64,000 nucleotides of DNA from Escherichia phage ECP_WGS_SA1, in sequence record PQ604604. One strand, given 5' to 3'. Each line of letters begins with the position of its first letter. The stretch's first letter is position 1. Positions 1 to 64,000 of this stretch are shown here, one piece after another. The notes under the pieces were generated by a model that saw only the letters and a program-made list of their open reading frames with translations, had not been told where the DNA came from and made no database searches. The position numbers and the translations under genes are program-made.

Positions 1-328
1 NNNNNNNNNNNNNNNNNNNNNNNNTGATCCTGTGCCNCCCATGGAAGTTGGGACGATGCTTTGATCAGCNNNNNNNNNNNNNNNNNNNNNNNNNNNNNNN
101 NNNNNNNNNNNNNNNNNNNNNNNNNNNNNNNNNNNNNNNNNNNNNNNNNNNNNNNNNNNNNNNNNNNNNNNNNNNNNNNNNNNNNNNNNNNNNNNNNNNN
201 NNNNNNNNNNNNNNNNNNNNNNNNNNNNNNNNNNNNNNNNNNNNNNNNNNNNNNNNNNNNNNNNNNNNNNNNNNNNNNNNNNNNNNNNNNNNNNNNNNNN
301 NNNNNNNNNNNNNNNNNNNNNNNNNNNN

Positions 329-725
329 GATGCACCAGCATTTGCTGATTGATGATATTGACCAAACCATGAACCAGTCAAGGCATTGAGATTTATTCCG
401 TTAGGAATCTCTCCAAAGTTTCGGACAGTACCCGTCAAAGTTGCGGCAGTGGTTCGAATAGAAAGCATGTCGCCAGCCGCCCATGCACGCGCTGCAGTTC
501 CTTCCTGTGCACGCTGCACGGTCAGGACGTTTCCAACAACGGCTGTTACTGTGACGATTTCGAATTGGAGGCCTGTTGCGGCGTCAACGATTGTCGCCAC
601 TACACGCTCGTTTGCGCCCAAGGTCGGAAAGCCCGACCCTGAGCGAATTGTGATTGTGGTGTCTGAAGTCGTCGTTGGCTGAGCGAGCGCGACCTCAAAG
701 TTGTTTTTGAATATTAGCCTTGGCA
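329..725 (-). CDS. Tail fibre protein, N-terminal part (partial; runs into N-gap)
   Basis: Minus-strand ATG at 725 with GAGGA RBS; translation MPRLIFKNNFEVALAQ...TVQRAQEGTAARAWAAGD resembles the conserved N-terminal domain of phage tail fibres; not in ORF track because it enters N-run. Confidence 0.5.
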
Positions 726-764
726 TTTTACGGTCCTCGTTTTGTCGACAACCGTATTATAACC

Positions 765-1106
765 TTAATTTCTTTTGAGAGGAATATGACGGTTGCTGTC
801 ATTATTTGGTTTAATAATGAGCATAAAAACGATTAGAAAGATGATGGCTGATATACTTAATTCAATCAGAGCGGCTTGAGATATGGATTGGTCTTCGTGA
901 TACTGCTTTTGCATTTCCGCTTTCTTCTGAGCGCAAACTTCAGGTGATATATAATCGCCTTTTGAGTTGCCATAATAAATCTCGCCATTCTCAGAAATAA
1001 GTCTGCCGCAAATATCAGTTTCAGCCTTTGCGCTTGACATCATAATGACGGTGCCGATGATAGCGGCAATTGTCCAGATTAGCAGTTGTGATAAAGTGTT
1101 GTTCAT
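765..1106 (-). CDS. Small membrane protein (N- and C-terminal hydrophobic segments)
   Basis: Internal start MNNTLSQLLIWTIAAIIGTVIMMSSAKA with AGAGG RBS; C-terminal hydrophobic stretch. Confidence 0.45.
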   Translation of the reverse strand: MNNTLSQLLIWTIAAIIGTVIMMSSAKAETDICGRLISENGEIYYGNSKGDYISPEVCAQKKAEMQKQYHEDQSISQAALIELSISAIIFLIVFMLIIKPNNDSNRHIPLKRN

Positions 1107-1302
1107 GATAACCTCTTTAAATTCCCTTCCCACATCGGGAAGGGTGAATATTATTTTAAACGAAAGAATAGGCGCGTGCCACACAGAGAGTCCCAACGGC
1201 CTTCGCCGTCCCATATCGAACCAACGCCAGCAGTGATTGGGCCAGCAGAATTGGCGGCATTGGCCCAAGCGAGACGTTTCAACTTCCAACTGCACCAACG
1301 AT

Positions 1303-1536
1303 TCACAGTTCACCTCCAGATTGCAAAACAAGTCCCGCATAGAGGATTGCTAAAGCTAAAGGCGCACCACTTCCAGCTTCTCTATTCTCTTTGATTTGAA
1401 GAGTGTCCTTAAGGAATTGCAGCTGAACGTTGAATTCATTTTCAATTCCAAGCACTCCAGCTAATTCTTTTACAGAATCTGCATATGCCTTGTCTAGCAC
1501 TTCTTTTGGTACTGTTAAAGTCAATTCATTTGCCAT
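1303..1536 (-). CDS. Hypothetical protein
   Basis: ORF with GGAG upstream of MANELTLTV start. Confidence 0.4.
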   Translation of the reverse strand: MANELTLTVPKEVLDKAYADSVKELAGVLGIENEFNVQLQFLKDTLQIKENREAGSGAPLALAILYAGLVLQSGGEL

Positions 1537-1747
1537 TTTCTTTCCACTCCACAAATGCACTTCCACTTGTTTCTCTATTTAGCAGGTATCTGCCGCGCAT
1601 TCCATGAAGGCTGAACTCAACCGTCGATGGATTAGATTTTGAAAGCCACATCGCTTGACCGTCGAACGGTCCGCCAACGCATGTGTATTTAGCCTTTGGC
1701 TCACTCCTTTTGGGTCGCTTTGCCCGCTCTTTGATTGATAGTCTCAT
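1526..1747 (-). CDS. Hypothetical basic protein
   Basis: ORF in operon-like array; lysine/arginine-rich N-terminus. Confidence 0.4.
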   Translation of the reverse strand: MRLSIKERAKRPKRSEPKAKYTCVGGPFDGQAMWLSKSNPSTVEFSLHGMRGRYLLNRETSGSAFVEWKENGK

Positions 1748-1962
1748 CAGTCTTCACCTTGAGATTCCAGACAAGTAAGAACAAGCCACGTCATCGGAAG
1801 AATCAAAACCAGAGAAATAAGGGACCAGATGGACCAGCACAAGATGACAGACTTGAATGTGTGAACGTCGCCAAACGCAGCAGTGAAACAAAATCCCATC
1901 ACGAAAGCAAGCACAGTGGAGTGATTATCAATAGCTTTGATGGCACGGTCAATGAGTTTCAT
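1747..1962 (-). CDS. Small membrane protein (holin-like size)
   Basis: GGAGG RBS; two hydrophobic helices in 71 aa. Confidence 0.45.
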   Translation of the reverse strand: MKLIDRAIKAIDNHSTVLAFVMGFCFTAAFGDVHTFKSVILCWSIWSLISLVLILPMTWLVLTCLESQGED

Positions 1963-2036
1963 ATTACCTCCGGTTTTGAGTTAATATGATTATAACGCAG
2001 AGCTTCAGAAAGGCAAACTTTTTGTGAATTTANNNT

Positions 2037-2063
2037 AAAAAAATGGCCAGANNGNNTCTGGCC
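2037..2063 (-). terminator. Hairpin with T-run on minus strand (loop N-masked)
   Basis: GGCCAGA-loop-TCTGGCC preceded by A7 on plus strand. Confidence 0.3.
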
Positions 2064-2139
2064 AAAAGATCACCCTTTATCCACTACTAAGCTGGAATCA
2101 TAATTTTACTTGATATAGCTGTCGCAAGCAAACTATAAT

Positions 2140-3600
2140 ATGAATAAAATATTAACACATAATTGGAAAGTCATGTACCAGTTGAATCCTGCTTTAAGAG
2201 AAGTCTGGAAGACGAAAGCGCGATACAAAGTTATATACGGCGGTCGTGCATCTTCCAAATCGCATGATGCCGCTGGTTTTGCTATTTATTTGGCGGCAAA
2301 TTTTAAATTAAAATTCCTTTGCGTTCGACAATTCCAGAACAAGATTTCTGAATCAGTATATACGCTATTAAAAGACAAAATAGAAATTTCTGATTTCAAA
2401 GATGAGTTCAACTTATTAAAGAACTCCATTGAACACAAAAGAACAAAATCTGAATTCTTATTTTACGGTATCGCACGCAACGTTGACGAAATCAAATCAA
2501 CAGAAGGTGTTGACGTTCTTTGGCTTGAAGAAGCGCACGCGCTGACTGAAGAGCAGTGGGATATTATTGAGCCGACAATTCGTAAGGAAGGGTCCGAAAT
2601 ATGGATCATATTTAACCCTGATGAAGAGGCTGATTTCGTCTACCAGAACTTTGTTATGCGACCGCCTAAAAATGCCATCGTTAAGAAAATTAACTGGCAG
2701 GACAATCCATTCTTGTCGCAAACAATGCTGGACGTTATCGCTGGCATGTATGAGCGCGACCCGAAAAAGGCAGAACACGTTTATGGCGGAGTACCGAAGA
2801 CAGGCGGCGACAAGTCGGTCATCAACCGTGCATTCGTCAAGGCCGCGCTAAACCTCCACAAACACCCTACGTTGGGATGGAGGTTGTCAGGGTCTAACCG
2901 TATAGGCTTTGACGTGGCAGACGACGGCGACGACTTAAACGCCACAGCATTTGTCACGGGCAACGTATTGCGCGGCATCAAGACATGGGAAGGTCTGGAA
3001 GATGAATTGCTTAAGTCCGCAAGCGGAGTTTGGAAAGATGCATTAACATTCGGCGCATCAATTACCTATGACGCCATCGGTGTTGGTGCATTTGCTGGTT
3101 CAAAATTTGATGAGCTTAATGAGTATGCAATCCATGAAAATCCAACATTCCCAAGAATCGAATTTAATGCGTTCAACGCGCAAGGTGCTGTTGATGATCC
3201 TGATGACGTCTTCCTTGAGTTACCACACGTTGAAATACTCAATAAAGACCATTTCGCAAACATAAAAGCGCAAAAATGGACTGAGATTGCCGAACGATTC
3301 AGGAAGACATATGAGTATGCAACAGGGCAGGCCGTATACCCGACTGATGAGCTGATTTCCATCGACACAGACGGCATTCCAGAACTTGGGATTCCTGCTT
3401 GGTCTGCGGAAGAAATTGAGACATTTCTTTTTGAGATGTCAGCGCCGCGCAAAGACACGTCTGTGCTTGGTAAGTTTAAAGTTGAATCGAAAAAGGATAT
3501 GGCAAAGCGTGGAGTCAAATCGCCTAACAAAGCGGACGCAGCAATCATGGCGTTGATGAAACCAATTGTTGCAGCATCCGGCTTCTTCTCTAACCTTTAA
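2140..3600 (+). CDS. terL: Terminase large subunit
   Basis: Walker A-like KVIYGGRASSKSH near N-terminus, acidic nuclease-like C-terminal half; true start may be Met at 2173. Confidence 0.85.
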   Translation: MNKILTHNWKVMYQLNPALREVWKTKARYKVIYGGRASSKSHDAAGFAIYLAANFKLKFLCVRQFQNKISESVYTLLKDKIEISDFKDEFNLLKNSIEHKRTKSEFLFYGIARNVDEIKSTEGVDVLWLEEAHALTEEQWDIIEPTIRKEGSEIWIIFNPDEEADFVYQNFVMRPPKNAIVKKINWQDNPFLSQTMLDVIAGMYERDPKKAEHVYGGVPKTGGDKSVINRAFVKAALNLHKHPTLGWRLSGSNRIGFDVADDGDDLNATAFVTGNVLRGIKTWEGLEDELLKSASGVWKDALTFGASITYDAIGVGAFAGSKFDELNEYAIHENPTFPRIEFNAFNAQGAVDDPDDVFLELPHVEILNKDHFANIKAQKWTEIAERFRKTYEYATGQAVYPTDELISIDTDGIPELGIPAWSAEEIETFLFEMSAPRKDTSVLGKFKVESKKDMAKRGVKSPNKADAAIMALMKPIVAASGFFSNL

Positions 3601-3603
3601 CAA

Positions 3604-3843
3604 TTAAAGCATTCCGTGCTGAAGGTCGAGTTTTCTTGCGGCAAACGACCTGGCACGGAATCGCTTACCCGCCCTTACTGCCTGTCGAATCTTCTTTTGC
3701 AAACACTTACGATCAAAATCGTTGCGGTCGACGGCTTCGAGTAAATCACGACGCAGAGCACCCAGTGTCGACTTTTCAGAGACTTCAACGCCCAGCGCGG
3801 CTGCAACGTCTTTCAAAACATCGAGTTCGGTTAAAGTTCTCAT
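3604..3843 (-). CDS. Hypothetical protein (opposite-strand insert between terL and portal)
   Basis: AAGGGGA RBS; start overlaps stop of upstream gene (ATGA). Confidence 0.45.
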   Translation of the reverse strand: MRTLTELDVLKDVAAALGVEVSEKSTLGALRRDLLEAVDRNDFDRKCLQKKIRQAVRAGKRFRARSFAARKLDLQHGML

Positions 3844-4256
3844 TTGATAATCCCCTTGATGTCTGATTCTGCCATAAAGATTGGAGTTCCGCCGCCAGGA
3901 ACAATCGAGCGCGTGACTTTATCAAACATATCGTTTTCTTCAACTTGAATACGATAGAATTTATTTTTGGATGAAGATGGGCACAATCCCATAAATTTGC
4001 CGATTCCGCGAACGCATTCATCTTCAAAGTATACTGTTTCACCTTGAATTGAGTCGATGTTGTCTACTGGATAGACCTTGCGGCCCAACAACCACTCATC
4101 CAAAGTCGCCTGCAAGACGTTGCGCGCATCTAAAATCCACGGGTCAATAATAGCACCTTCGTATCGCGCAGCAGTGGCCTTTGCCAGTTCTTCATATTCG
4201 CATACGTTAACGACTTCGCCTTTATGCAAGACGACAAATACAATTGTTGTGCTCAT
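3840..4256 (-). CDS. Hypothetical protein (opposite-strand insert)
   Basis: AAGGAG RBS 7 nt upstream of ATG; 138 aa. Confidence 0.55.
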   Translation of the reverse strand: MSTTIVFVVLHKGEVVNVCEYEELAKATAARYEGAIIDPWILDARNVLQATLDEWLLGRKVYPVDNIDSIQGETVYFEDECVRGIGKFMGLCPSSSKNKFYRIQVEENDMFDKVTRSIVPGGGTPIFMAESDIKGIIK

Positions 4257-4351
4257 TTCAATCTCCTTTCGTTTGGTTAACTAAAATATAACTCAAAATG
4301 ATACAAAAGCAAAATATTTTATGAACTATTTATGATCACCATACATATCAT

Positions 4352-4380
4352 TTGCTTACAAACACATGAATATTTATAAT
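4352..4380 (+). promoter_or_regulatory. Sigma70-like promoter upstream of portal
   Basis: TTGCTT - 17 nt - TATAAT. Confidence 0.55.
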
Positions 4381-4418
4381 ATAGATTGATTCCCTTTCAC
4401 TGTCAGGTGGCGTTAACA

Positions 4419-6794
4419 ATGAAAATTCTTGGCATAAAACTCTGGGAGAAGACGCAACCAGAAGCCGAACCAGCGGAGATGCCGCCAGGCGACCCATTGG
4501 CACCGTTTGAACGCCTTGAAAGGCGCGGCAGCGGTCAACGCTGGGAAAAGACTGAAAGCAATCGACCTACCTTTAAAACGGTTGATGACTTCCCTTTGTA
4601 TGAGCCTGATATTAATGGCGACGGTGTTGCTATCATAAAAGGTCGTTCAGTCGATTCCGCAACAGTATCCAAAAAAGTTATGGATAATGCCTTGAAGAAC
4701 ATCAGTTCAGAAGGGCAGGTCAACCCATACACAGTACCTATTCAACTTCAAAACTGGTATTTGTCACAGTCATTCATCGGCTATCAAGCTTGCGCAATCA
4801 TCGCGCAGCACTGGCTGGTGAACAAAGCGTGTTCCATGGTAGGCCGCGATGCAGTCCGTAAAGGCTGGGAAGTCAAATCCAGTTCTGAGTCCGAATTATC
4901 AGTGCAGGCCAGCGAACGCCTAAAGCAAATTGATAAAGAATTTAATATCAAAGAGCACTTAGTTGAAGCCGAACGATTCAAAAATATTTTTGGTATCCGC
5001 GTCATCATATTTGATGTGCGTAGCGATGACCCAGAATACTACAGTAAACCTTTTAACATTGATGGTGTGACAAAGGGGTCTTATAAGGGGATCATTCAGG
5101 TTGACCCTTATTGGATGATGCCATTTCTGACGTCTGAAAACACCGCCGACCCTGCTTCACAGCACTTTTATGATCCAGAATACTGGGTGATCAGCGGACA
5201 ACGTTATCATCGCAGCCACCTCATAATATTGCGCAACGATGAGCCAGCTGATATTCTTAAGCCGACTTACATCTACGGCGGCATTCCTCTAACTCAGCAG
5301 ATTTATGAACGCATCTATGCCGCTGAACGTACCGCTAACGAAGCACCATTGTTGGCGATGTCTAAACGTACAACGACACTACGGACCGACGTTGACAAGG
5401 CGATTGCCAATGAGCGGTCTTTTGCCGAACGCCTGATGATGTGGATTAAGTACCGCGACAACTATGCTGTTAAGGTACTTGGCCAAAAAGAAGAAATGGA
5501 CCAGTTCGACATCAACTTGTCAGACTTCGACAGCATCATCATGAACCAGTACCAGCTGGTGGCCGCAATCGCAAAAGTTCCGTCGACCAAACTGCTTGGT
5601 ACTTCGCCAAAAGGCTTTAACGCCACTGGTGAATTTGAGATGGTCAGCTATCACGAAGAGTTGGAAACGTGCCAGCAGCATGACCTGACAAAAATTCTCG
5701 ACCGCCATTACAAAATCCTTCTCAAATCAGAAGGGGTGGAAGTCGACGTTAAGGTTGCATGGGAACCAGTTGGCTCACTTACTGCTACTCAACTTGCAGA
5801 AATCAACGACAAGCGAGCTAACACTGGCAAAACTCTCATTGATGCTGGCGTCATTTCTCCTGATGAAGAGCGCGACCGCATCAAAGACGACAAAAACAGC
5901 GGTTACAACCGTCTGCCGGAAGATGCAGCAGAAGAAACCCCAGGGATGTCTCCAGAGAATATGGCATTGCTTGGCAAGTCTGCTGGTGAAGTCCTGCAAG
6001 GTAAGGCTGATATTGAACAGGCAAAAGCTGATGTCGTTAAGATGGGCGGCCAGTTCTACAGTGAAACAGGTATTATGCCAGAAGGTGCCGCGCGTGGTGA
6101 GTTGGCGGAAAACCCTGACAGAGCACCTGTCGAAATTAACATGGACGATACCGATGATGAATCAAACCATCAGGTTGATGTCCTAACGCAGTTGAAAGAA
6201 GGTCTGGAGGGTATTGCGGATTACTACCTGAAAGAAGGTCAGGATGTGGATTTTGACCCTCAAAAAGATTCACGGTCGGTGCAGCCGTCTACCCTTCCAA
6301 GCGTCAAAGGTAATGTCGTAAACTTACGACACAACGTTGGCAAGATGGACGCAGCATCATTACCTAAGATGAAGTTGCACGGAATGATTCTTGGGATTGA
6401 GAACCCTCGCAACAGCATCCGTAGAGGAAATAGCCTTGACGGTGAATGGGCAGTCAAGATGCCGCACCATTACGGATTCATCAAAGGCACCAAGGGCGCG
6501 GACGGCGATGAAGTCGACTGCTTTGTTGGCACAAATCTGAAGTCGCCGAAGGTCTTTATCGTGAACCAAAACGATAACTACTCTGGCGAGTTCGATGAAC
6601 ACAAGTGCATGCTTGGATTCGATTCAGCAGAAGAAGCAAAAGAAGCTTATCAGGCATCATTTGGTAACGGTTGGAACGGATTCGACTCAATCCACGAATT
6701 AGATGTGAACTCATTCAAAGAGTGGTTGAAGGGTGATTGCTCTCAAGCATACGGAGCACTCAATAATCCTACTAATTCACCGAAGCAAGGTTGA
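4419..6794 (+). CDS. Portal protein with C-terminal extension
   Basis: Position right after terL region, size, portal-like central region; AGGTGG RBS before MKILGIKLW. Confidence 0.75.
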   Translation: MKILGIKLWEKTQPEAEPAEMPPGDPLAPFERLERRGSGQRWEKTESNRPTFKTVDDFPLYEPDINGDGVAIIKGRSVDSATVSKKVMDNALKNISSEGQVNPYTVPIQLQNWYLSQSFIGYQACAIIAQHWLVNKACSMVGRDAVRKGWEVKSSSESELSVQASERLKQIDKEFNIKEHLVEAERFKNIFGIRVIIFDVRSDDPEYYSKPFNIDGVTKGSYKGIIQVDPYWMMPFLTSENTADPASQHFYDPEYWVISGQRYHRSHLIILRNDEPADILKPTYIYGGIPLTQQIYERIYAAERTANEAPLLAMSKRTTTLRTDVDKAIANERSFAERLMMWIKYRDNYAVKVLGQKEEMDQFDINLSDFDSIIMNQYQLVAAIAKVPSTKLLGTSPKGFNATGEFEMVSYHEELETCQQHDLTKILDRHYKILLKSEGVEVDVKVAWEPVGSLTATQLAEINDKRANTGKTLIDAGVISPDEERDRIKDDKNSGYNRLPEDAAEETPGMSPENMALLGKSAGEVLQGKADIEQAKADVVKMGGQFYSETGIMPEGAARGELAENPDRAPVEINMDDTDDESNHQVDVLTQLKEGLEGIADYYLKEGQDVDFDPQKDSRSVQPSTLPSVKGNVVNLRHNVGKMDAASLPKMKLHGMILGIENPRNSIRRGNSLDGEWAVKMPHHYGFIKGTKGADGDEVDCFVGTNLKSPKVFIVNQNDNYSGEFDEHKCMLGFDSAEEAKEAYQASFGNGWNGFDSIHELDVNSFKEWLKGDCSQAYGALNNPTNSPKQG

Positions 6795-56739: not shown

Positions 56740-57550
56740 TGTTTCATCAAGCAAAGGAGAATGATTATGAGNNNNNNNNNNNNNNNNNNNNNNNNNNNNN
56801 NNNNNNNNNNNNNNNNNNNNNNNNNNNNNNNNNNNNNNNNNNNNNNNNNNNNNNNNNNNNNNNNNNNNNNNNNNNNNNNNNNNNNNNNNNNNNNNNNNNN
56901 NNNNNNNNNNNNNNNNNNNNNNNNNNNNNNNNNNNNNNNNNNNNNNNNNNNNNNNNNNNNNNNNNNNNNNNNNNNNNNNNNNNNNNNNNNNNNNNNNNNN
57001 NNNNNNNNNNNNNNNNNNNNNNNNNNNNNNNNNNNNNNNNNNNNNNNNNNNNNNNNNNNNNNNNNNNNNNNNNNNNNNNNNNNNNNNNNNNNNNNNNNNN
57101 NNNNNNNNNNNNNNNNNNNNNNNNNNNNNNNNNNNNNNNNNNNNNNNNNNNNNNNNNNNNNNNNNNNNNNNNNNNNNNNNNNNNNNNNNNNNNNNNNNNN
57201 NNNNNNNNNNNNNNNNNNNNNNNNNNNNNNNNNNNNNNNNNNNNNNNNNNNNNNNNNNNNNNNNNNNNNNNNNNNNNNNNNNNNNNNNNNNNNNNNNNNN
57301 NNNNNNNNNNNNNNNNNNNNNNNNNNNNNNNNNNNNNNNNNNNNNNNNNNNNNNNNNNNNNNNNNTTATGACATCAAATCTTAAAGCCCGTTTATTATTT
57401 ATCAAGCCGCATGTGCCGTATAAGATTAGCAAGCGCACCTGGCTTAACATTTACAACCGCAGCGGTGACCGTTGCTTGTACAAGGCAAAGCGACGCAAGA
57501 AGGTATATTNNNNNNNNNNNNNNNNNNNNNNNNNNNNNNNNNNNNNNNAA

Positions 57551-60224: not shown

Positions 60225-60432
60225 TACATCTTACGGATGATACGGATGATACGCGTCGCCGCTATACTTTATACAACTTTGAAAAAAACAATTAACTCCA
60301 TTTTGAATTAATTTAAATTAATTTTTTTCTACATCCTCATACTTATACTAAACTTGTGTTTATACGTATTATCCGTAAGATATAAGTAAAAACAAAGACT
60401 TGCGGCAATACGGATGATACGTCATGATACGC
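60225..60432. repeat. Second iteron-like repeat island (same unit)
   Basis: About 50 bp near-identical to 8809-8860, plus extra copies at 60364 and 60408 flanking an AT-rich stretch. Confidence 0.6.
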
Positions 60433-60578
60433 TTCAACCAGCCAGCAGCGGCTAAGTCATTGATTTGCATAACAAGCGGCGAAAGGGATTGATTTCTTTT
60501 ATACGTATCAAACAGTACACCACGCATCACGGTCCGCTATTCATTTAGCACTATGATTTATGTACGTTTACAGCCAAT

Positions 60579-60607
60579 TTGAACATCAATCTGCACTTGA
60601 ATATAAT
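60579..60607 (+). promoter_or_regulatory. Sigma70-like promoter upstream of 60660 gene
   Basis: TTGAAC - 17 nt - TATAAT; ATTTGCACTAT motif copies lie in the leader. Confidence 0.5.
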
Positions 60608-60659
60608 GTTCATTCATTGTATAATTCACACTATTAATTTGCACTATGGGATTTGCACT

Positions 60660-61133
60660 ATGAGTCAAGATTATGTAGCAATGCCTGAAGACTTTGAAGA
60701 CCCGCGATTTGCAGAGCATAATCAGGCATTATTCGATGAGTTCATTGACCTTGTTATTCAGGGCCATGACATGCGCGCAGCTTTTGCACTAGTATTTGGC
60801 ATGGAGGTTGCGACCGATAACTACACTGGCCAGCGAATCCTGTGCACTCAGCGCAATCCGTACTACAAGATGCGCTACAAAAAGCGCATGGAAGAGATGC
60901 CATTGAAGGAGTTGTGGAGTGTAAAGAGTTCCATCCACAATTTAGTGAAGCTTGTGCGTGATCCAGAAGTCGCGGCTTCAGCCAAGCTTAATGCCATTCG
61001 TGAACTGAATATCATCTACGGCATCACGATGATTGATGAAAATGGCAATAGTAAAATGGGCCGTTCCATGGACGATTTCTACAAGGATTTTGGAGAGGCA
61101 GCCAAAGAGGGTGAGCAATTCTCCCGCCACTAG
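60660..61133 (+). CDS. DNA-binding protein, terminase small subunit-like candidate
   Basis: Segment MRAAFALVFGMEVATDNYTGQRILCTQRNP resembles the HTH region of small terminase families; consensus promoter upstream. Confidence 0.4.
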   Translation: MSQDYVAMPEDFEDPRFAEHNQALFDEFIDLVIQGHDMRAAFALVFGMEVATDNYTGQRILCTQRNPYYKMRYKKRMEEMPLKELWSVKSSIHNLVKLVRDPEVAASAKLNAIRELNIIYGITMIDENGNSKMGRSMDDFYKDFGEAAKEGEQFSRH

Positions 61134-61561
61134 CCAATTTGCACTATAAAACGGCCCTAGAACACATTTTCTCCACTTCTAGGGCCGTTGGTAATACGAC
61201 GGGGAAGGCTGCAACCATAAACGCGTTATAAAGTGTATTATTATAAGTCATCTTTTAGTCGCTTTACGTAACAATTTACGACCTTCCGCCGTCCAGTCGA
61301 ACGACTCCACCAGCAGATTTGCACTATAACCTAAGACGATGCGCCCCTTCTCGTTATCGACCCGCCAACAAGTCTCGAATAGCATTCGATTTGCACTATT
61401 AACTATCGCCGCAACGCGCGTTGGGTAAGCGCAATTTGCACTATGGTCGTAAAGGGATAAGGTGCGACCACTGCCGATGGACAACGTAGCGATGAGAATA
61501 AGCGTATTCATAAGCCACCAATTTGCACTATGAAAAGCGACCCCGAAGGGCCGCCATTCGA

Positions 61562-62188
61562 TTAGATAATCTGGAAGGTGTAGGACTTGTTGCCGAACTC
61601 GAAGTTCAAGCGCCCGGCTTCCTTAAGCTTCATGCGGAAGCGAATGTGTTTGCTATCCGGTAAGCCCAGCGCGGCGAACGCTACGCGGACCGATTTGAAC
61701 TCGCCTACACCCTCGACCATAACGGCGTTACGGGTGAGACGCTTTTGTGCCACTTCCTTGTTATCCCAACTTTTTGCAATACCTTCGCTATTAGAACGGC
61801 GATGGGAAGGAGTTCCATTTTGCACTACGCAATTTGCACTATCGTTTAGGCCGCTCTTAACGAAGGCTTCATACTCTTCGTCGGTCATCGCGTCGAGTTC
61901 TTCCTGAGTCGGCTCGGCCTTTTTAACGACCGCACGCGCCTTATGCGTTTTTACATCGCTGGACACTTCCTCGCGCGGCTTCGCGTCGGGGATGGGCAAT
62001 TCGTTGGACGGCTCATCGAGCGCGTTTAAGGACTCGATTAACGCGATGACGCGAGTCTCAGCGGTGCGACGGTCCACAAACTTCTTAATCGGTTTTGAGC
62101 CGGAGTTGGCATTATAGAATGCAACGAGGTCGGCGGTCTTAGTTGCGATAACGTCGCCGCTAGTAGAAAAGCGATTTAAGCTAACCAT
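61562..62188 (-). CDS. Hypothetical protein (early island)
   Basis: AGGAG RBS; atypical CpG-rich codon usage. Confidence 0.5.
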   Translation of the reverse strand: MVSLNRFSTSGDVIATKTADLVAFYNANSGSKPIKKFVDRRTAETRVIALIESLNALDEPSNELPIPDAKPREEVSSDVKTHKARAVVKKAEPTQEELDAMTDEEYEAFVKSGLNDSANCVVQNGTPSHRRSNSEGIAKSWDNKEVAQKRLTRNAVMVEGVGEFKSVRVAFAALGLPDSKHIRFRMKLKEAGRLNFEFGNKSYTFQII

Positions 62189-62268
62189 AATAAACTCCTA
62201 TTTGTTAGGGCGCTAGGCGCGAAAGAATTTTATTAAAGCGCCGCGCACGACGCTCTAAAAATCCTCTC

Positions 62269-62583
62269 TTACTCTTCGTCGTCTTCGATTAATTCGAAGG
62301 CGAAGGCATAAGCTTTGCTATCGTAATTAACTAAAACGGCGAGTTCGAACTCGTTAATAAACGCCGTTTTACCGCATAAATTTAATTCCGCATCGACTTC
62401 GAAGAATCCGTTTTCGTCGCGCTCTAAGCGAGAAGCAGCGAGTTGCTCGATTACCGTCGCGTCGTTAATTTCTTCGCCTAAGCGAACGCCGGAGAATTTC
62501 GCGAGAATTTCGCCGTAAGTAAGCGTAACACCCTGGACTTCGGCGGTTGCGTTTTCGAGGGTGAAGCGGGTAACGATAGCCAT
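62269..62583 (-). CDS. Small strongly acidic protein (paralog family, early island)
   Basis: AGGAG RBS; about 104 aa, strong net negative charge, C-terminal DSKAYAFAFELIEDDEE. Confidence 0.5.
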   Translation of the reverse strand: MAIVTRFTLENATAEVQGVTLTYGEILAKFSGVRLGEEINDATVIEQLAASRLERDENGFFEVDAELNLCGKTAFINEFELAVLVNYDSKAYAFAFELIEDDEE

Positions 62584-62651
62584 AATAAGCTCCTAGTTGG
62601 GAGAGGCGTTAACGACCTATTCGTTAACTCATCCCGTCCCGATATGAGTAC

Positions 62652-62679
62652 ATTATAATATAGTGTAGAAAAAAGTAAA
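62652..62679 (-). promoter_or_regulatory. Early promoter copy (minus strand)
   Basis: Minus strand reads AGTGCTTTACT - 16 nt - TATAAT. Confidence 0.55.
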
Positions 62680-62713
62680 GCACTTTTTCGATAAAAATGC
62701 GATAAATTATTTT

Positions 62714-62741
62714 ATCTTTTTTCTTTACTTCTTCGTACACT
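62714..62741 (+). promoter_or_regulatory. Early promoter copy (plus strand)
   Basis: CTTTACTTCTTCGTACAC...TATACT, then GC hairpin and RBS. Confidence 0.5.
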
Positions 62742-62807
62742 CGCGTATACTTGTTTATATCGAGACGGGCGATGGCCCTTTCTTCTACTAGCATCGGGAG
62801 CTTTATT

Positions 62808-63110
62808 ATGACTACTTTAATCTCTTCCATCCTTACTTACGACGAAGACCGCTTAACCGTTCGCTCTCTTATCGCCGCCGTTAACGCGGAACTAGAATCT
62901 AGCGCCATCAAGGTCCGTGCCGTTGCCTTCGTCGGCCTTTCCTTCGACGATATTAAGTATGCAGAGTATAGCGCCATTCGCGTTGTTACTACCGACGATA
63001 ACGCCGTTACCCTTATCGAGACGGTTACGCCGCGCGGCGAAGCGTTAATTATCGTCGAGTATATCGACGTAGAAGGCGATAAAGCTTATAAATATTTTAT
63101 CGCAGAATAA
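62808..63110 (+). CDS. Small acidic protein (paralog family, early island)
   Basis: GGGAG RBS; C-terminal GDKAYKYFIAE similar to 62269..62583. Confidence 0.5.
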   Translation: MTTLISSILTYDEDRLTVRSLIAAVNAELESSAIKVRAVAFVGLSFDDIKYAEYSAIRVVTTDDNAVTLIETVTPRGEALIIVEYIDVEGDKAYKYFIAE

Positions 63111-63120
63111 CGAAAAGTGC

Positions 63121-63149
63121 TTTACTTCTTCGTACACTAAGACTATAAT
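63121..63149 (+). promoter_or_regulatory. Early promoter copy (plus strand)
   Basis: AGTGCTTTACT - 17 nt - TATAAT; near-identical to 62714 copy. Confidence 0.55.
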
Positions 63150-63216
63150 GTTTTATATCGAGAGGGGATGAGGTAGCGAATAGGTCGCTACCCTCCCGAC
63201 TAACTAGGAGAATATT

Positions 63217-63507
63217 ATGATTACTTTATCCGCTATCCGCTCCGCTCGCGTCGAAACTTCCGAAAACTCTAACGTATTTGGCGAAANNNNNNNNNNNNNN
63301 NNNNNNNNNNNNNNNNNNNNNNNNNNNNNNNNNNNNNNNNNNNNNNNNNNNNNNNNNNNNNNNNNNNNNNNNNNNNNNNNNNNNNNNNNNNNNNNNNNNN
63401 NNNNNNNNNNNNNNNNNNNNNNNNNNNNNNNNNNNNNNNNNNNNNNNNNNNNNNNNNNNNNNNNNNNNNNNNNNNNNNNNNNNNNNTTTAAAATCGTCTC
63501 CTTATAA
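63217..63507 (+). CDS. Small protein (mostly N-masked)
   Basis: AGGAG RBS, N-terminus MITLSAIRSARVE resembles 62808 gene; body masked. Confidence 0.35.
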   Translation: MITLSAIRSARVETSENSNVFGEXXXXXXXXXXXXXXXXXXXXXXXXXXXXXXXXXXXXXXXXXXXXXXXXXXXXXXXXXXXXXXXXXXXFKIVSL

Positions 63508-63539
63508 TACCCTTCCGTTACTAATAGGCCGCGCTTAGT

Positions 63540-64000
63540 CGCGGCTTTTCTTCGTCCCTATCTCGATGCGCTTCTCCGCGAAAACTCCTTTATCCTTCCC
63601 TTCGTCGTCGCATAATCTTCGTCGAGATGCGCCTTAGTTCGCATAACAGGTATTACGTTAAATGGAGAACATCGCGTAAGTCCTTGTTTTATATAGACAC
63701 CTATATCGGACCGTTAGGGAGGGTCGCGCAAGTCGTTGTTTTATAAAGGCGCAAAACTTTCCCTTCGTTCCGAACTAAAACGAGAAATATGCCGACCCTT
63801 CGCCCGAAAATAGTACGCATGCGAAATTACATGTATCTAGAATAATCCCCACCGATATTATCCTACACGCAATCATTAGCTTTCGAATCATTATGCTTCA
63901 TACTATTATGCGTCGAATCATTCGCTTTCGAATTGTAACGCTGAAAACTGTAACGGCGATTGATTATTGCGTTCGTGTGGTTTTTATGGCATGGGTCTTT
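63540..64000. repeat. Repeat-dense non-coding region at window edge
   Basis: No ORF of 60 aa or more in any frame; short direct-repeat families (TCGCGYAAGTCSTTGTTTTATA x2, GAATCATTNGCTTTCGAAT x2, CCCTTCG x4, TGTAACG x2). Confidence 0.5.

Follow-up and report, generated by a model that had tools for sequence, protein, structure and literature searches.

A strand-polar array of a 12-bp DNA word across terS in the terminal repeat of a Wifcevirus-type Escherichia phage, a tentative recognition array for the small terminase subunit

We analyzed a 64,000-nucleotide stretch of DNA from Escherichia phage ECP_WGS_SA1 (sequence record PQ604604; hereafter the window), which is ~98% identical to Escherichia phage vB_EcoM_WFH (WFH), an E. 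coli myovirus of the genus Wifcevirus. Close to its right-hand end lies an array of a short DNA word, all of whose copies point in the same direction, covering the start of the terS promoter and its leader, the small terminase subunit gene terS itself, the small gene orf87 and the 3' part of a further gene, orf208. The array is a real, previously undescribed signal, since related phages keep it. Sequence comparisons lead us to favor, tentatively, the reading that it is a polar recognition array for the small terminase subunit (TerS), which would serve both packaging and terS autoregulation. A literature search for the motif returned no phage paper, and the genome announcements and genus papers found make no mention of it.

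The array is situated in a terminal repeat. Positions 60300..64000 of the window align to WFH 1-3701 and therefore form the right-hand copy of the 3,701-bp direct terminal repeat (DTR), so that the end of the window is the right end of the genome. The first 40 nucleotides of the WFH record map to window position 60300, the record of the phage genome Mansfield begins at the equivalent position, and Mansfield carries a PhageTerm DTR feature (1-3673) whose start is homologous to window position 60300; Korf et al. give a terminal repeat of ~3.7 kb (PMC6563267), and the placement is also backed by PMC6753283. The physical left end has thereby been defined independently by three groups. The array starts ~245-340 bp from this end and is confined to the first ~1.5 kb of the repeat, occupying the first third of the 3.7-kb DTR, and terL is found ~9 kb further into the genome than terS. 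The window holds 2,153 N bases in masked runs (1-328, 56772-57365, 63287-63486 and ~25 shorter ones), including 200 N inside the terminal repeat, and its repeat differs from the left repeat copy of WFH at 29 of ~3,500 comparable positions, so that the window represents a WFH-like genome and not that very record.

The 11-mer ATTTGCACTAT has eight exact copies in the window, all on the plus strand of the array region, and zero elsewhere on either strand. Its 9-mer core TTTGCACTA is found ten times between 60637 and 61842, again always on the plus strand and nowhere else in the window, the two copies beyond the exact 11-mers being those at 60782 (TTTTGCACTAG) and 61818 (TTTTGCACTAC). Weaker copies at 60544 (TTTAGCACTAT) and 60624 (ATTCACACTAT) bring the total to 12. 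These counts bear out the preliminary description of this DNA, made from the letters alone, which had noticed about ten same-strand copies of an 11-bp motif within 1.3 kb and had made its case dependent on their exceeding chance: for the 8-mer TTGCACTA, 0.04 occurrences are expected in the 2.3-kb region where ten are seen (Poisson p ~4e-21). When up to two mismatches are allowed, the 23 matches across the window are at chance level (25.7 expected), hence the signal lies entirely in the cluster of exact and near-exact copies. The complete Mansfield genome (68,120 bp) contains nine copies of TTTGCACTA, every one on the plus strand within 339-1543, so that no second array exists in that genome. 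The copies are spaced irregularly, by 13-355 bp over an extent of ~1.2 kb, and apart from two tandem pairs (60637/60651 and 61818/61832, each 14 bp from start to start, as had been noticed from the sequence) the spacings show neither helical nor 13.7-bp periodicity.

The copies can be followed along the genes from left to right. The terS gene (60660..61133, plus strand) encodes 157 amino acids (phrog_4783) and is annotated as 'terminase small subunit' in Mansfield; its product matches the decameric TerS of Pseudomonas phage E217 (PDB 7UXE) in a phmmer search with E=9e-33, and the best fold match of its predicted structure is likewise 7uxe_A. It is preceded by two overlapping sigma-70-type promoters on the same strand, TTGAAC-17-TATAAT at 60579-60607 and TTGAAT-17-TATAAT at 60597-60625, each with 10/12 matches. 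The degenerate copy TTTAGCACTAT (60544..60554) stands 112 nucleotides upstream of the terS ATG, whereas the variant ATTCACACTAT (60624..60634) abuts the second TATAAT at the predicted transcription start. An exact copy in the terS leader follows at 60637..60647, invariant in seven Wifcevirus genomes, and another at 60651..60661, whose last two bases together with a G make up the terS ATG (60660). The copy at 60624 thus forms a triplet with the pair 60637/60651, with 13/14-bp spacing, which runs from the second TATAAT to the terS start codon, and two to three copies lie between the -10 element and the ATG, where the preliminary description had placed two. Within terS, the variant copy TTTTGCACTAG (60782..60792) spells the codons A-F-A-L-V and may be held partly by coding. 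A further exact copy (61137..61147) fits between the terS stop codon and a bidirectional terminator hairpin located between terS and orf87 (61150..61189), a perfect 13-nucleotide inverted repeat that is annotated as a terminator in WFH.

On the minus strand beyond this terminator lies orf87 (61248..61511, 87 amino acids). It does contain three exact copies, as had been reported; the conclusion drawn from them, that this open reading frame is probably not a real gene, does not stand. Comparison of its codons among the seven Wifcevirus genomes gives 16 synonymous and 5 non-synonymous changes, 17 of 22 changes fall at third codon positions, the pattern vanishes in shifted frames, and homologues occur in all six other lineages that bear the array (the Pantoea phage Kyle and the lineages L052-L056), indicating by sequence comparison that orf87 is a real gene under purifying selection. 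It is found in the array-bearing clade only, with a phyletic pattern identical to that of the array. Its product starts with a hydrophobic, signal-peptide-like stretch, and two cysteines as well as the motifs NSA and CWR are invariant in it. The hydrophobic N-terminus together with the two cysteines suggests an exported protein. The AF2 model is all-beta (pLDDT 70) with no fold match in the PDB, and neither a Pfam match above the cut-off nor a PHROG family was found. We considered orf87 as the binder of the motif and rejected it: the Pfam match to the MGMT DNA-binding domain has only E=0.08, below the cut-off, and neither this match nor a 'CWRV...GY' resemblance is upheld by the all-beta model without PDB fold or PHROG.

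The three copies in orf87 lie on the plus strand at 61317..61327 (peptide YSANL), 61389..61399 (peptide NSAN, of which NSA is invariant among the homologues and NSAN is kept except in L056) and 61434..61444 (peptide HSANC). The first of them reads ATTCGCACTAT in WFC and one metagenome genome. The next exact copy (61521..61531, plus strand) lies between the terminator of orf208 and the ribosome-binding site of orf87; this terminator hairpin (61537..61554, minus strand) was read from the sequence and is annotated in WFH. The last tandem pair is carried by orf208 (61562..62188, minus strand; 208 amino acids, phrog_4730), which is conserved also in relatives without the array. It consists of the variant TTTTGCACTAC (61818..61828), absent in ECML-117, where the segment has been replaced, and, 14 bp on, an exact copy (61832..61842, peptide DSANC), both on the plus strand. 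Altogether, the 12 copies comprise five in intergenic DNA, one across the terS start codon and six that are wholly intragenic; the intragenic copies sit in genes on both strands, yet they keep a single DNA orientation throughout.

To compare related phages we fetched their loci via TerS homologues. The array was found in L053 (TerS identity 70%), L054 (53%), L055 (50%), L056 (45%) and Kyle (44%), and in a sixth lineage, L052, which was found via its orf87 homologue on a 521-bp contig that does not include terS and carries four exact 11-mers. Strict copies (TYYGCACTA) number 6-10 per lineage on the terS strand, within -115 to +1175 relative to the terS ATG, and the opposite strand has none or one, far off; in the whole Kyle genome, for example, eight strict copies lie at 800-1475 and one stray on the other strand 57 kb away. 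Across lineages, 58 of 60 sites share one orientation although the genes lie on both strands. The consensus over 66 sites is the 12-bp asymmetric word RATYYGCACTAY. Single copies drift in position from lineage to lineage, while the array, its polarity and its place are kept. A few positions recur: abutting the TATAAT of the terS promoter in four lineages (besides this phage, L053, L054 and L055 show the arrangement TATAAT-nn-[G/A]CACTAT); ~100 nucleotides upstream of the terS ATG (-112 in L053, -104 in L056 and -97 in L055, comparable to the window's own upstream copy); and in the gap from the terminator of orf208 to the ribosome-binding site of orf87 in five lineages (at similar offsets of about +865 to +900 in L053, L054, L055 and L056). 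The copy inside terS also recurs at the same offset (+126) in L053.

Beyond this clade the array is absent from Pbunavirus (PB1, Pa193), tabernarius, Carpasina, the Serratia phages SMP, MTx and MyoSmar, and ~15 metagenomic lineages. The strict motif has no occurrence in seven named array-less relatives and one per strand in 122 kb of 16 others. Two broader rules that we considered failed on these genomes. That every TerS of the family has its own adjacent polar array is contradicted by Pbunavirus, tabernarius, Carpasina and the ~15 metagenomic lineages, where none was found, and a correlation of the array with fixed ends or a terminal repeat is broken by Serratia MyoSmar and MTx. In L044, repeats of GAACTTGCGG upstream of terS form an inverted pair of longer units, not a polar array.

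Could the copies be a mere by-product of coding for the S-A-N tripeptide, or of chance? The copy at 61389 does encode NSAN, and that at 60782 encodes conserved A-L codons of TerS. However, intergenic copies and the copy on the start codon make up half of the 12, the orientation is the same across genes on both strands, ten copies stand against ~0.04 expected, six lineages keep the array despite the drift in position, and synonymous sites are conserved. The last point comes from orf87: among codons that keep their amino acid between lineages, the third base is kept as well in 20 of 24 cases within motif copies, compared with 84 of 168 elsewhere (p ~0.002, the comparisons not being fully independent). 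This excess argues that the DNA word itself is under selection, and we consider an array devoid of function to be exceedingly improbable. A candidate binding-site array for a phage or host factor, as first proposed, is still the best general description of this genuine, non-random and same-strand pattern.

Short repeats in or beside terS commonly make up recognition sites of the pac and cos type, examples being lambda cosB, P1 pac, SPP1 pacL/pacR and P22 pac. The array shares these properties: it is in or beside terS (-115 to +1175 of the ATG), starts 245-338 bp from the left end, and is composed of repeated short elements that are unique both in the window and in the whole of Mansfield. One close parallel may be drawn with lambda cosB, in which R1-R3, the sites for gpNu1, lie next to cosN and immediately upstream of Nu1 (terS). 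In both cases short repeated, genome-unique elements are placed between the genome end and the start of terS, which is the first gene after that end. cosB differs in being ~120 bp long, with three sites of mixed orientation plus sites for integration host factor (IHF), in a phage with cohesive ends, whereas the array, as a candidate TerS site, has ~10 co-oriented sites over 1.2 kb, runs through and past terS, and belongs to a 3.7-kb terminal repeat. The pac region of P1 consists of seven TGATCA/G hexamers, and the pacL-pacR boxes of SPP1/SF6 are bound by TerS; like the array, these are packaging recognition regions with several copies of a short word in or beside terS, but they span 160-270 bp in headful phages, so that the array is 4-7 times longer and occurs in a phage with fixed ends.

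The TerS proteins themselves are compatible with such a role. The TerS of this phage is a clear homologue of the E217/PB1-type protein by sequence and fold, and, as in E217, its gene lies far from terL. In contrast to E217, the array-bearing clade has a Q/K/R-R pair in the N-terminal domain: all seven array-bearing TerS sequences read (Q/K/R)-R-N-P-Y-Y-K, whereas all five array-less ones read E-(S/A/F)-N-P-Y, and the clade-specific residues fall within the confidently modelled N-terminal helical domain. On the favored reading, TerS rings (decamers in the solved homologue) would bind the sites through their N-terminal helical domains. Because all sites point the same way, the terminase complex would be loaded in one direction beside the left genome end. 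This loading would tag phage DNA for packaging and fix the direction in which it is packaged, in the manner of cosB beside cosN in lambda or of the polar KOPS sites that orient FtsK; a TerS ring around which DNA wraps or through which it threads, and a motor that needs loading in a single direction, fit well with strict polarity. The triplet from the transcription start to the terS ATG would allow TerS to throttle its own synthesis. Such autoregulation is plausible, because a copy abuts the TATAAT of terS in four lineages and because excess TerS lowers the infectivity of E217 (PMC9611059). The cuts at the repeat boundaries would probably use separate boundary repeat elements.

Several observations weigh against a TerS recognition array. 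Known TerS sites span no more than ~300 bp, compared to 1.2 kb with 13-355-bp spacing here. Serratia MyoSmar and MTx have a homologous TerS and ~3.56-kb terminal repeats and carry neither an array of this motif nor one of any non-Chi motif, hence fixed ends in the family do not need the array. The boundary repeat elements found at both ends could themselves be the true terminase sites. The clade-specific TerS residues are distributed as orf87 is, that is, as any clade-specific gene would be, so that their co-occurrence with the array is consistent with recognition and not diagnostic of it. Within the genus, motif columns (86% invariant) fare no better than their flanks (86%) in the seven Wifcevirus genomes, a comparison that is uninformative since the region is too similar among them. 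Finally, no appreciable DNA binding by E217 TerS is reported in vitro (PMC9611059). Headful packaging is reported among relatives in the TerS family, namely in Pbunavirus (PMC12390725), and this group, E217 included, has no array.

The arrangement around the promoter could also suit another DNA-binding protein, either an early protein of the phage or a factor of its Enterobacterales hosts, for which the copies would be operators or roadblocks that time the genes of the terminal repeat, silencing the terS promoter where transcription starts and modulating read-through into orf87. A copy abuts the -10 element of terS in four lineages, two to three copies fill the leader, five lineages keep the position of the copy that separates the terminator of orf208 from the ribosome-binding site of orf87, and the motif stays near-constant while TerS falls to 44% identity, as expected of a conserved or host-encoded reader. 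On the other hand, most copies are intragenic and far from promoters, the repeat's remaining sigma-70-like promoters (62679-62652, 62724-62751 and 63121-63149) lack a copy, and a plain repressor does not need 58 of 60 sites to be co-oriented. Moreover, no candidate binder was found: orf87, the only clade-specific protein encoded in the repeat, matches no DNA-binding fold. We regard this explanation as possible but rather unlikely.

Single orientation is typical of signals for translocating enzymes, such as Chi, KOPS (which orients FtsK) and cosQ. The array might accordingly be a polar signal of the Chi kind, or a polar barrier, for a machine coming in at the left DNA end and reading a single strand, be it a helicase-nuclease, a recombination enzyme or a terminase translocating at termination, and it would then protect the end or direct recombination of terminal repeats into concatemers. 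True Chi (GCTGGTGG) does form arrays in sister lineages, where their location and polarity agree with those of the motif array. Nine Chi sites fall in the first 2 kb of Kyle, and five are found in L054, seven in L055 and four to five in Serratia SMP, MTx and MyoSmar; in Kyle this amounts to 4.5/kb against 0.06/kb elsewhere, a 76-fold excess. These arrays, seen as CCACCAGC on the terS strand and taking up the first ~2 kb of the terminal repeat, extend over 255-1972 of the Kyle locus (L010), 411-1836 of L054, 323-1824 of L055, 3730-4908 of SMP (L015) and 180-1277 of MTx (L047), and all these sites are oriented for RecBCD entering from the left genome end. The motif copies are co-oriented with the Chi arrays of Kyle, L054 and L055, and the lineages with the sharpest motif, Wifcevirus and L053, hold one and zero Chi sites, respectively. 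The single Chi of the window, seen in reverse complement (CCACCAGC) at 61307..61314 on the plus strand, is directly upstream of the 61317 copy.

Nevertheless, E. coli RecBCD reads GCTGGTGG, to which the motif is unrelated in sequence, and we know of no enzyme that reads the GCACTA word. Both arrays are present in four lineages, so that Chi and the motif are not simple substitutes for each other. The A/T-rich 5' part of the motif and the tandem triplet on the terS leader resemble duplex protein-binding sites more closely, and such a triplet on a promoter leader is foreign to Chi and KOPS, from which the word also differs in sequence. A Chi-like signal is therefore, in our estimate, unlikely. 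A more general form of it, which we rate as quite unlikely, is that the left part of the repeat is a landing strip for end-entering machines and the array a new Chi-related, end-proximal signal. The same unlikely scheme would have lineages fill the strip with host Chi, the RATYYGCACTAY word, or both, and its reader would be a phage or host helicase-nuclease or a recombination factor acting in end protection and repeat-to-repeat recombination.

The preliminary description had also raised an origin-like iteron set. On an origin reading, the copies would be initiator or primase sites of a replication origin or priming region and their orientation would set the direction of the first fork. The array does form a unique group of clustered short direct repeats, RepB'-like primases are among the phage's proteins according to the Mansfield annotation, and each genome would have two copies of an origin placed inside the repeat. 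However, iterons as we took them are tandem, regular repeats of ~17-22 bp in non-coding DNA beside an initiator gene, whereas these are 11-12-bp units spaced irregularly by 13-355 bp, mostly within genes, and their neighbors are terS, orf87 and orf208, with no initiator gene adjacent. The same primases occur without the array in PB1, tabernarius and, judging by homology of the neighboring gene, Serratia SMP. GC skew tracks the orientation of the genes all along the window, and the array does not stand out in it. The turning point that would fit a classical origin lies at ~47-48 kb, between the helicase and primase genes. An origin is thus very unlikely here, and the iteron proposal was set aside.

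The same holds for the likeness to activator boxes of phage middle promoters that had been suggested. On neither strand do the copies have a -10-like or -35-like partner at a constant distance. A MotA box is centered near -30, with a -10 element (TAnnnT) 11-13 bp downstream; here, for each offset from 4 to 23, TAnnnT follows 0-1 of 49 sites, which equals background. The motif is also confined to the 1.3-kb stretch, where middle-promoter boxes would recur across the genome ahead of a gene class. Promoter readings were consequently dropped. No MotA/AsiA-like protein, phage RNA polymerase or sigma factor is annotated in Mansfield, an observation drawn from the annotation only and not from a dedicated homology search. 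To our knowledge, neither the DnaA box, the marbox, the TrpR half-site nor Tus-Ter fits the GCACTA core well.

Other repeats mark the boundaries of the terminal repeat. An imperfect 23-nucleotide inverted repeat of ACGGATGATACG units (60225-60247 / 60362-60384) is centered at ~60304, on the left end at 60300, and further direct copies of the ACGGATGATACG type flank this end (60231-60253 and 60408-60421). Kyle has an analogue in the symmetric pair TGGTTATTTTT / AAAAATAACCA at -116/+117, plus AATATCCGAA repeats. This inverted-repeat structure is a candidate recognition structure for the cleavage site, separate from the GCACTA array. Just inside the right end of the Wifcevirus repeat (63871-63922), (C)GAATCATT repeats occur at ~15-bp spacing, as they also do in L056 (3400-3588, the position of the right end being inferred) and, in both orientations, in Kyle (L010 3470-3590); they may be a right-boundary element. 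Outside the window, a block shared across genera, GTAC..AATTT..CAGTACACTAATCA.AAT, is found in Mansfield (L001 3686-3730) and Kyle (L010 3616-3660), 13-60 nucleotides past the right-hand boundary, where the surrounding DNA has diverged; if an insertion is allowed (AATTTGCA-GTA-CACTAAT), the block bears a faint likeness to the motif.

Midway along the terminal repeat, a promoter module (CTTTACTTCTTCGTACACT ... TATAAT/TATACT ... TATCGAGACGG) is duplicated in two direct copies (repeats 62581-62645 / 63155-63219, 62661-62687 / 63113-63139 and 62723-62769 / 63120-63167), and it also lies within a 65-nucleotide inverted repeat, giving divergent, duplicated sigma-70-like early promoters. In L053, the word (C)GAACCGTGA(A) occurs seven times on the plus strand and twice on the other strand at 1189-4440, in the early-gene block upstream of the terminal repeat, of which it may be a regulatory motif.

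The way in which small terminases locate viral DNA is still under debate, and we know of no DNA site for the decameric TerS of the E217/PB1 type. If the array is the target of TerS, it would be the first candidate DNA target for this terminase family: a specific 12-bp word, carried by an E. coli phage amenable to genetics (BASEL isolates Bas98-101), that would allow sequence recognition, ring polarity, the setting of direction and the marking of long terminal repeats to be probed; a long, dispersed and strictly polar array inside a terminal repeat would be a new form of terminase site. Should the Chi-like explanation be true, the finding would be more novel than a TerS site. Whatever the mechanism, the array and the co-oriented Chi sites crowd the first 1.5-2 kb of the repeat with strand-polar signals in this group of phages, which bears on how DNA ends are protected and processed in very fast-growing phages and on their engineering for therapy.

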